NCBI RefSeq assembly: GCF_003019035.1
Contig: NZ_CP027447.1
Source: Escherichia coli
GTDB taxonomy: Bacteria > Pseudomonadota > Gammaproteobacteria > Enterobacterales > Enterobacteriaceae
Reading direction: 5' to 3' (one strand)
DNA length: 64,000 nt
The position numbers were made by a program, and so were the translations under genes. Under the pieces are notes generated by a model, which was not told where the DNA came from, did not search any database, and was given only the letters and a program-made list of their open reading frames with translations. This document shows, piece by piece, positions 40,051-40,503 of this stretch. Numbering within the stretch: the first letter of the stretch is position 1; every line of letters begins with the position of its first letter.

Positions 40051-40082
40051 CAAAAGCAAAAACCCGCCGAAGCGGGTTTTTA
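40051..40082. terminator. bidirectional intrinsic terminator shared by rnpB (minus) and yhaC (plus)
   Basis: aaaaacccgccgaagcgggttttt hairpin with flanking T/A runs on both strands. Confidence 0.75.
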
Positions 40083-40090
40083 CGTAAAAC

Positions 40091-40467
40091 AGGTGAAACT
40101 GACCGATAAGCCGGGTTCTGTCGTGGACAGTCATTCATCTAGGCCAGCAATCGCTCACTGGCTCAAGCAGCCTACCCGGGTTCAGTACGGGCCGTACCTT
40201 ATGAACCCCTATTTGGCCTTGCTCCGGGTGGAGTTTACCGTGCCACGGACTGTTACCAGCCGCGCGGTGCGCTCTTACCGCACCCTTTCACCCTTACCTG
40301 ATCCCGCTTGCGCGGGCCATCGGCGGTTTGCTCTCTGTTGCACTGGTCGTGGGTTTCCCCCCCAGGCGTTACCTGGCACCCTGCCCTATGGAGCCCGGAC
40401 TTTCCTCCCCTCCGCCCGTCTCCCCCGAAGAGGACGACGACGAAGCGGCGACTGTCTGGTCAGCTTC
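40091..40467 (-). ncRNA. rnpB: RNase P RNA component (M1 RNA), 377 nt
   Basis: Reverse complement begins GAAGCTGACCAGACAGTCGCCGCTTCGTCGTCGTCCTCTTCGGGGGAGACGGGCGGAGGGGAGGAAAGTCCGGGCTCCATAGGGCAGGGTGCC... and ends ...CGGTCAGTTTCACCT, matching the E. coli M1 RNA I know. Confidence 0.93.
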
Positions 40468-40503
40468 GGCGCGCAGTATAGAGGGTTTGCGCGCCCTTGT
40501 CAC
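40468..40503 (-). promoter_or_regulatory. rnpB promoter (-35 GTGACA, 17 bp spacer, -10 TATACT) embedded in the 3' end of garK
   Basis: On the minus strand, TATACT at 40475-40480 and GTGACA at 40498-40503 at canonical spacing from the M1 RNA 5' end at 40467. Confidence 0.6.

Follow-up and report, generated by a model that had tools for sequence, protein, structure and literature searches.

The 64,000-nt stretch of Escherichia coli DNA analyzed here (contig NZ_CP027447.1, hereafter the window) very likely carries the canonical E. coli rnpB transcription unit. An M1 RNA gene on the minus strand is preceded by its own sigma-70-type promoter, whose -35 hexamer holds the stop codon of garK, and is followed by the T1 terminator hairpin. 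The identity of the gene, the sequences of promoter and terminator together with their conservation, and the structure of the downstream allele are all direct observations on the DNA. The window departs from K-12 in the spacer that separates rnpB from the convergent gene yhaC, where it holds the minimal allele of an array of 113-bp units.

An intact M1 RNA gene at the edge of a low-GC segment

Positions 40091-40467 on the minus strand encode mature M1 RNA, the bacterial class A RNA of RNase P, with a length of 377 nt. When the whole window was compared with Rfam, RNaseP_bact_a (RF00010) matched this interval with 318.6 bits against a gathering score of 100 (E 1.7e-103). The match was full length and untruncated (model positions 1-367 of 367), and it was the sole strong match in the window. 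The gene is identical at 377/377 positions to that of the K-12 derivative MFDpir, and RefSeq annotates rnpB at the same coordinates in strain SCU-301. The P4 pseudoknot is intact, with AAGUCCGG at RNA positions 66-73 complementary to CCGGCUU at 354-360 and U69 bulged, and so is the P6 pseudoknot, in which GGGC (82-85) pairs with GCCC (276-279). Conserved regions CR-I (GAGGAAAGUCC) and CR-V (ACAGAAcCCGGCUUA) are both present, as is the L15 GGU element that binds the 3′-CCA of tRNA (G292 G293 U294, GGT in the DNA). Because of the Rfam score, the complete identity to K-12 and the integrity of P4, P6, CR-I, CR-V and L15, the assignment of this interval as the M1 RNA gene is certain. The original prediction had called a 377-nt M1 RNA gene on this strand; the covariance-model search, the alignment with E. 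coli M1 RNA and the inspection of P4, in which no helix-breaking indel was found, all bear it out.

Compared with RF00010 class A, the RNA is a typical gammaproteobacterial member that has all conserved regions and pseudoknot strands and shows no difference. From its 100% identity to the K-12 M1 RNA gene, it would be expected to cleave pre-tRNA. The agreement with the K-12 locus extends from the RNA gene to the promoter with its discriminator, the nesting of the garK stop, and T1 together with its U-tract; a single A-to-T difference lies 2 nt past the mature end. An ORF of 171 aa runs antisense across the whole of rnpB (40045-40560, plus strand). As a by-product of the high GC content of the RNA gene, it is almost certainly spurious and was set aside, although gene callers sometimes report ORFs of this type.

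The surrounding gene order, as annotated in RefSeq for SCU-301, is tdcA, tdcR, yhaB and yhaC on the plus strand, then rnpB, garK, garR, garL and garP on the minus strand. Downstream of rnpB and convergent with it lies yhaC (38797-39984, plus strand; stop codon TAG at 39982-39984), a low-GC gene of 395 aa that appears in the ORF list and is annotated in RefSeq as a YhaC family protein. Directly upstream and co-oriented with rnpB is garK (40500-41645, minus strand), which RefSeq annotates as a glycerate 2-kinase of 381 aa; the 408-aa ORF given for it in the ORF list begins upstream of the annotated ATG. The interval 40051-40503 spans exactly the sequence from the -35 hexamer through the end of the terminator T-tract. 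Over 39700-40800, the window is 100% identical to SCU-301, an independent complete genome, and the same segment finds a match in 5,425/5,426 complete E. coli genomes.

Positions 36200-40030 have a GC content of 36.0% and positions 40031-44600 one of 53.5%; the break is located ~60 nt beyond the 3′ end of rnpB. Conservation changes at the same gene. We scanned species-representative genomes with the last 25 nt of M1 RNA, which yielded 23 loci. At all loci with enough upstream sequence, garR-garK-rnpB is syntenic, whereas what follows the terminator varies from genus to genus. No YhaC homologue was detected by tblastn (E < 1e-5) in the 22 non-window loci, among which a weak YhaB-like fragment was found in E. 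albertii only. The GC shift, the synteny of the gar genes and the confinement of YhaC to the window locus in this set support the earlier description of rnpB as the edge between conserved DNA and variable, low-GC DNA.

The T1 terminator and the 3′ end of M1 RNA

The T1 intrinsic terminator of rnpB occupies 40056-40083. Its core, CCCGC-UUCG-GCGGG (40063-40076), is a 5-bp GC stem (CCCGC/GCGGG) with a UUCG loop on the rnpB strand; the stem is extended by pairing between flanking A5 and U5 runs, and the element is structurally symmetrical. The terminator string of the original prediction, aaacccgccgaagcgggttt, is found on the plus strand at 40060-40079; the hairpin is located where it had been placed, and hairpin and tail are identical to the characterised T1 of K-12. 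Folded alone, T1 gave -18.0 kcal/mol on the rnpB strand, with the extended stem, and -13.9 kcal/mol on the yhaC strand. In 61-nt contexts compared with shuffled sequences, the energies were -25.0 kcal/mol (z -4.75) on the rnpB strand and -16.8 kcal/mol (z -2.9) on the yhaC strand. A consensus terminator scan reported the T1 hairpin on neither strand, probably because A/U pairing makes the U-tract part of the stem. The only match returned by that scan, at 40312-40331 (plus strand), sits inside rnpB and is meaningless.

The hairpin is kept in 15 species, and two of its pairs show compensatory change, for example C-G to U-A in E. whittamii. T1 belongs to a panel of terminators whose activity has been measured (Cambray et al. 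2013, PMC3643576). In the same study it was described as having a nested outer structure formed by an upstream A-stretch and the U tail, and a minimal version was less efficient. As a separate observation, the rnpB hairpin of Salmonella enterica subsp. arizonae is split by an insertion of ~25 nt (CCCGCTTCGGCG / CTGAGGGATCCCCAGTAATGG / GCGGG), and its terminator, unlike that of subsp. diarizonae, is without the usual T5GCT4 tail.

Read in the rnpB direction, the hairpin leads into the U-tract UUUUUGCUUUUG (40051-40062, minus strand), where primary transcripts would be expected to end 33-39 nt past the mature end. From the mature 3′ end at 40091, it is 33 nt to where the first U run ends and 39 nt to where the second does. 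Given where the mature end and the terminator lie, 40084-40090 (minus strand) would form the start of a 3′ trailer that is removed from the precursor along with the hairpin. These distances fit a 3′-extended M1 precursor that is trimmed to 377 nt, as reportedly described by Kim and co-workers in 1996. The 3′ boundary of M1 RNA is a processing site; gene packing, therefore, does not define the boundaries of the RNA. The claim that dense packing confirms these boundaries is overstated, since the mature 3′ end is a processing product that lies upstream of the termination site by the distance just given. The packing on the yhaC side is, moreover, strain-specific, with a yhaC-rnpB spacer of 106 bp in the window versus 613 bp in K-12.

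T1 as a putative terminator for convergent yhaC

The yhaC stop codon is separated from the GC core of T1 by 78 nt. An AU-rich hairpin at 39981-40012 (plus strand), UAGACUUU...AAGUCUA, overlaps this stop codon and folds with -6.5 kcal/mol. In the yhaC direction (plus strand), the T1 stem, with the -13.9 kcal/mol given above, is followed by UUUUUACGUAAA, that is, by five U (UUUUU) and then by mixed ACGUAAA. Termination of yhaC transcripts at T1 is plausible. With an A-tract on one side of the stem and a U-tract on the other, T1 probably stops yhaC as well and would thereby shield rnpB from antisense transcription. Bidirectional intrinsic terminators such as tetA/orfL of Tn10 are built from an A-tract, a GC stem and a U-tract between convergent genes, and T1 has the same layout. 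T1 differs from terminators of this type in that its yhaC-side tail has only five U and its activity in the yhaC direction is putative; it also differs in that the convergent neighbor yhaC lies at a variable distance in other strains. In the literature searched, including papers on bidirectional terminators that mention rnpB, no yhaC 3′ ends at T1 were reported.

Alternatively, T1 may work only from the rnpB and gar side, with yhaC ending elsewhere (at the AU-rich hairpin or through Rho) or being barely transcribed. We consider this a possible, if less favored, account. The short tail and weaker fold of T1 in the yhaC direction are compatible with it, and the AU-rich hairpin is positioned right at the yhaC stop. 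That hairpin, however, has neither a G-C-rich stem nor a proper U-tract and would make a poor intrinsic terminator. Distance can be read either way: in K-12 and many other strains, 200-600 bp containing a degenerate hairpin copy and REP lie between yhaC and T1, yet in no E. coli allele examined is the nearest T1 copy more than about 80 nt away from the yhaC stop. Low transcription of yhaC would be in keeping with its position inside the 36% GC segment; low-GC DNA of this kind is often silenced by H-NS in E. coli. Against activity from one side only stands the A5-stem-U5 symmetry of T1, which fits the anatomy of known bidirectional terminators.

We therefore retain termination of yhaC at T1 as the preferred reading for the window, at the strength stated above, and limit its reach. 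What yhaC faces in K-12 is the degenerate hairpin copy together with REP, and sharing of a functional terminator is thus no conserved requirement. Genera that lack yhaC conserve the A-tract of T1 as well, so this tract is not readable as adapted to yhaC. The sharing of T1 by both genes that the original prediction had proposed would, on these sequence comparisons, be a feature of the allele in the window and not of E. coli as a species.

A copy-number-variable array in the yhaC-rnpB spacer

The K-12 spacer contains 3.5 tandem copies of a 113-bp unit, with 96% matches, whereas the spacer of the window contains no tandem repeat. The unit comprises the last ~40 nt of rnpB, with gctatacccaaaagaaag replacing agaacc, and T1. 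In K-12, the array is followed by REP/BIME-type sequence and by a degenerate hairpin copy that adjoins yhaC; the window has none of these, and its count of extra units is 0, compared with 3 or more in K-12. Reed and Altman are said to have described repeats downstream of K-12 rnpB in PNAS in 1983.

We surveyed the spacer with a 201-bp query in 60 evenly spaced genomes among the complete RefSeq E. coli genomes. The compact spacer (span 196-202 bp) was found in about 17 of the 60, in several lineages that include O157:H7, the ExPEC-like strain SF-166 and FDAARGOS strains. Other sampled genomes were longer by 113, about 285 or about 400 bp, and in the rest the spacer was too long for the search to join. 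Closely related strains differ: O157:H7 Gim1-1 has no extra unit and O157:H7 Z866 exactly one, and one extra 113-bp unit is present in SX48, which is closely related to the window strain. Since the spacer copy number varies among E. coli genomes, even within O157:H7, the array is a copy-number-variable minisatellite of which the window carries the minimal allele.

SF-166 combines the compact spacer with a decayed yhaC. In a group of human and avian isolates that includes this strain, fragmentary pseudogenes annotated as hypothetical proteins stand beside rnpB in place of yhaC, and the spacer has a 4-nt deletion (at the slash in gatgaat/atctacgg). In this lineage, yhaC appears to be decaying.

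The compact spacer might be taken as an artifact in which the 113-bp array collapsed during assembly. Tandem repeats of this length can collapse in short-read assemblies, but the same compact allele recurs in the 17 or so complete RefSeq genomes noted above, across several lineages, and the window is 100% identical to the independently completed SCU-301; we regard this explanation as very improbable.

The edge of the array in the window has a defined form. In every E. coli allele examined, ...gtaagatgaat closes the array, and low-GC sequence (a(a)atatctacgg...) comes next. The break to this low-GC yhaC flank in the window falls between 40031 and 40030, inside the apparent start of another unit, of which TAAGATGAAT (40031-40040, minus strand) remains according to alignment with the K-12, O157:H7, SX48 and SF-166 alleles. 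Units with the same internal signature are found in Klebsiella pneumoniae, two Citrobacter species, E. albertii, E. whittamii and cryptic Escherichia clades, which argues that the array is old. Rather than being ancestral, the compact allele more likely arose when terminator copies recombined and the array collapsed. A scheme in which the compact spacer is ancestral and the array was born at the AGATGAAT microhomology (40133-40140 and 40031-40038) was rejected as the simplest reading, given the age of the array.

Because the array is old, its maintenance might reflect selection. It is, in our judgment, unlikely that the number of 113-bp units has functional relevance, be it for insulation between yhaC and rnpB, for antisense transcription into rnpB, or for termination and 3′ processing of the M1 precursor. 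If copy number did matter, the minimal allele of the window would represent the natural state with a single shared terminator.

A conserved promoter that holds the garK stop codon

The rnpB promoter, rnpBp, lies at 40475-40503 on the minus strand. It consists of the -35 hexamer GTGACA (40503-40498), a 17-nt spacer and the -10 hexamer TATACT (40480-40475). With 10/12 consensus matches, GTGACA-17-TATACT was the top sigma-70 site returned by a promoter scan of 39500-41000, and both hexamers named by the original prediction are correct. The minus strand reads ...GCG GGG TGA CA AGGGCGCGCAAACCCTC TATACT GCGCGCC G(+1)AAGCUGACC, so that 7 nt lie between the end of the -10 hexamer and the 5′ end of the RNA at G 40467. 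The garK stop codon TGA (40500-40502, minus strand), identified from the ORF list and the sequence, is nested inside the -35 hexamer. The core promoter overlaps the garK frame by only 4 nt, the last base of Gly381 and the stop codon; the 32-nt gap from the garK stop to +1 is all promoter. The earlier wording that the promoter overlaps the end of garK is thus accurate, and the wording that it is embedded there is not.

This arrangement is conserved well beyond E. coli. Among the 23 loci, 20 had sufficient upstream sequence, drawn from Escherichia species, Salmonella, Citrobacter, Kluyvera, Kosakonia, Enterobacter, Klebsiella and Intestinirhabdus. All 20 have nTGACA holding the garK stop, a 17-nt spacer ending in AAACCCTC, TATACT and a G/TCGCGCC discriminator. 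Wherever the upstream sequence was long enough, tblastn identified the preceding ORF as garK, with its end 32 nt ahead of +1. The garK stop in the -35 hexamer and the 32-nt gap are accordingly kept in about 20 species of at least 8 genera. Across 21 Enterobacteriaceae sequences, 22 of the 36 positions from -36 to -1 are invariant, with a mean conservation of 0.93, against a mean of only 0.60 at the adjacent third-codon positions of garK. This pattern amounts to a clear footprint of conservation beyond neutral expectation. Between the window and K-12, the sequence from -93 to -1 is identical except at two distal positions.

The discriminator, GCGCGCC (40468-40474, minus strand, between -10 and +1), is invariant across genera save for one G/T change. 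A GC-rich discriminator is a trait that rnpBp has in common with stringently controlled stable-RNA promoters such as rrn P1 and tRNA promoters. It differs from them in being without an A+T-rich UP element, since GC-rich coding sequence of garK lies upstream of its -35 hexamer. Stringent control of the rnpB promoter, including of -35 mutants, was reportedly studied by Jung and Lee in 1997 and by Park and colleagues in 2002.

The transcription unit has been published as garP-garL-garR-garK-rnpB. When K-12 was screened genome-wide by CRISPRi, guides on rnpBp or rnpB caused a fitness defect, whereas targeting the gar genes had no fitness cost; rnpBp emerged as the essential intra-operonic promoter. 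The promoter sequence is identical in the window, and the K-12 screen by analogy supports a role of rnpBp in driving transcription in vivo. That the promoter match is incidental and M1 RNA is mainly processed from garPLRK read-through, as the co-orientation of garK and rnpB without an intervening terminator and the annotated unit might suggest, is scarcely credible, because the CRISPRi result contradicts read-through as the source, rnpBp hardly varies across genera in which the adjoining coding sequence drifts, the 5′ end of the RNA falls 7 nt after the -10 hexamer, and the gar operon is inducible whereas rnpB is essential.

A model of the rnpB transcription unit

These observations fit a model in which sigma-70 RNA polymerase would start at G 40467 from GTGACA-17-TATACT, with a GC-rich discriminator typical of stringently controlled stable-RNA promoters. 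Termination at T1 and its U-tract would leave a transcript that reaches ~33-39 nt beyond the mature end, and trimming of this trailer would then give the 377-nt M1 RNA, the catalytic subunit of RNase P. The functions of the promoter and of T1, and the 3′ processing, are taken from the literature.

A rnpBp of this kind would free the expression of essential rnpB from the gar operon. Since garK and rnpB are co-oriented with no terminator in the 32-nt gap, gar read-through would run into rnpB and would have to end at T1, which is thus probably the terminator for gar read-through too. Read-through from gar into rnpB had been left out of the original prediction. On the opposite strand, the minimal array allele would make T1 the first GC-rich hairpin met by yhaC transcripts.

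Other features of the window

Three features outside the rnpB locus were recorded. According to the SCU-301 annotation, exuT and exuR flank a four-gene CS1-type chaperone-usher fimbrial operon at 12160-17260 (minus strand); its genes encode a chaperone, a CS1 major subunit, a TcfC-like usher and a CfaE/CblD tip adhesin. Since exuT and exuR are adjacent in K-12, the operon looks like an accessory insertion.

A borderline match to the Rfam sRNA family ES036 (CssrF), with 38.4 bits against a gathering score of 37.6, was found in the yqjG-yqjF intergenic region at 21971-22011 (plus strand). An ES036-like motif, GCAAATTCAATATATTGCAG...GTAGGCCTGATAAGCG, also stands beside the REP in the K-12 yhaC-rnpB spacer. 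Because this closely similar motif adjoins a REP there, the ES036 family may be a REP/BIME-associated repeat and not a dedicated sRNA gene.

The aga/kba N-acetylgalactosamine cluster at ~47700-58100 is annotated in its complete form, with agaE, agaW, agaF and nagA (agaA) intact. K-12 carries a deletion in this cluster.

Discussion

Nothing was found that contradicts the identity of the gene, the promoter or T1. The locus is textbook E. coli biology, and all of it was already known; descriptions of rnpB, its promoter, T1 and the downstream repeats of K-12 go back to the 1980s. The analysis has little weight beyond correct annotation. It serves as a positive control, since the original prediction had placed an RNA gene and its signals accurately from sequence alone, and it corrects three over-readings, namely how far the promoter overlaps garK, the reasoning on RNA boundaries and how general the shared terminator is. 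The variation of the 113-bp array among strains is the one mildly non-obvious result and a small practical caveat for the use of the K-12 layout as the reference of the locus.
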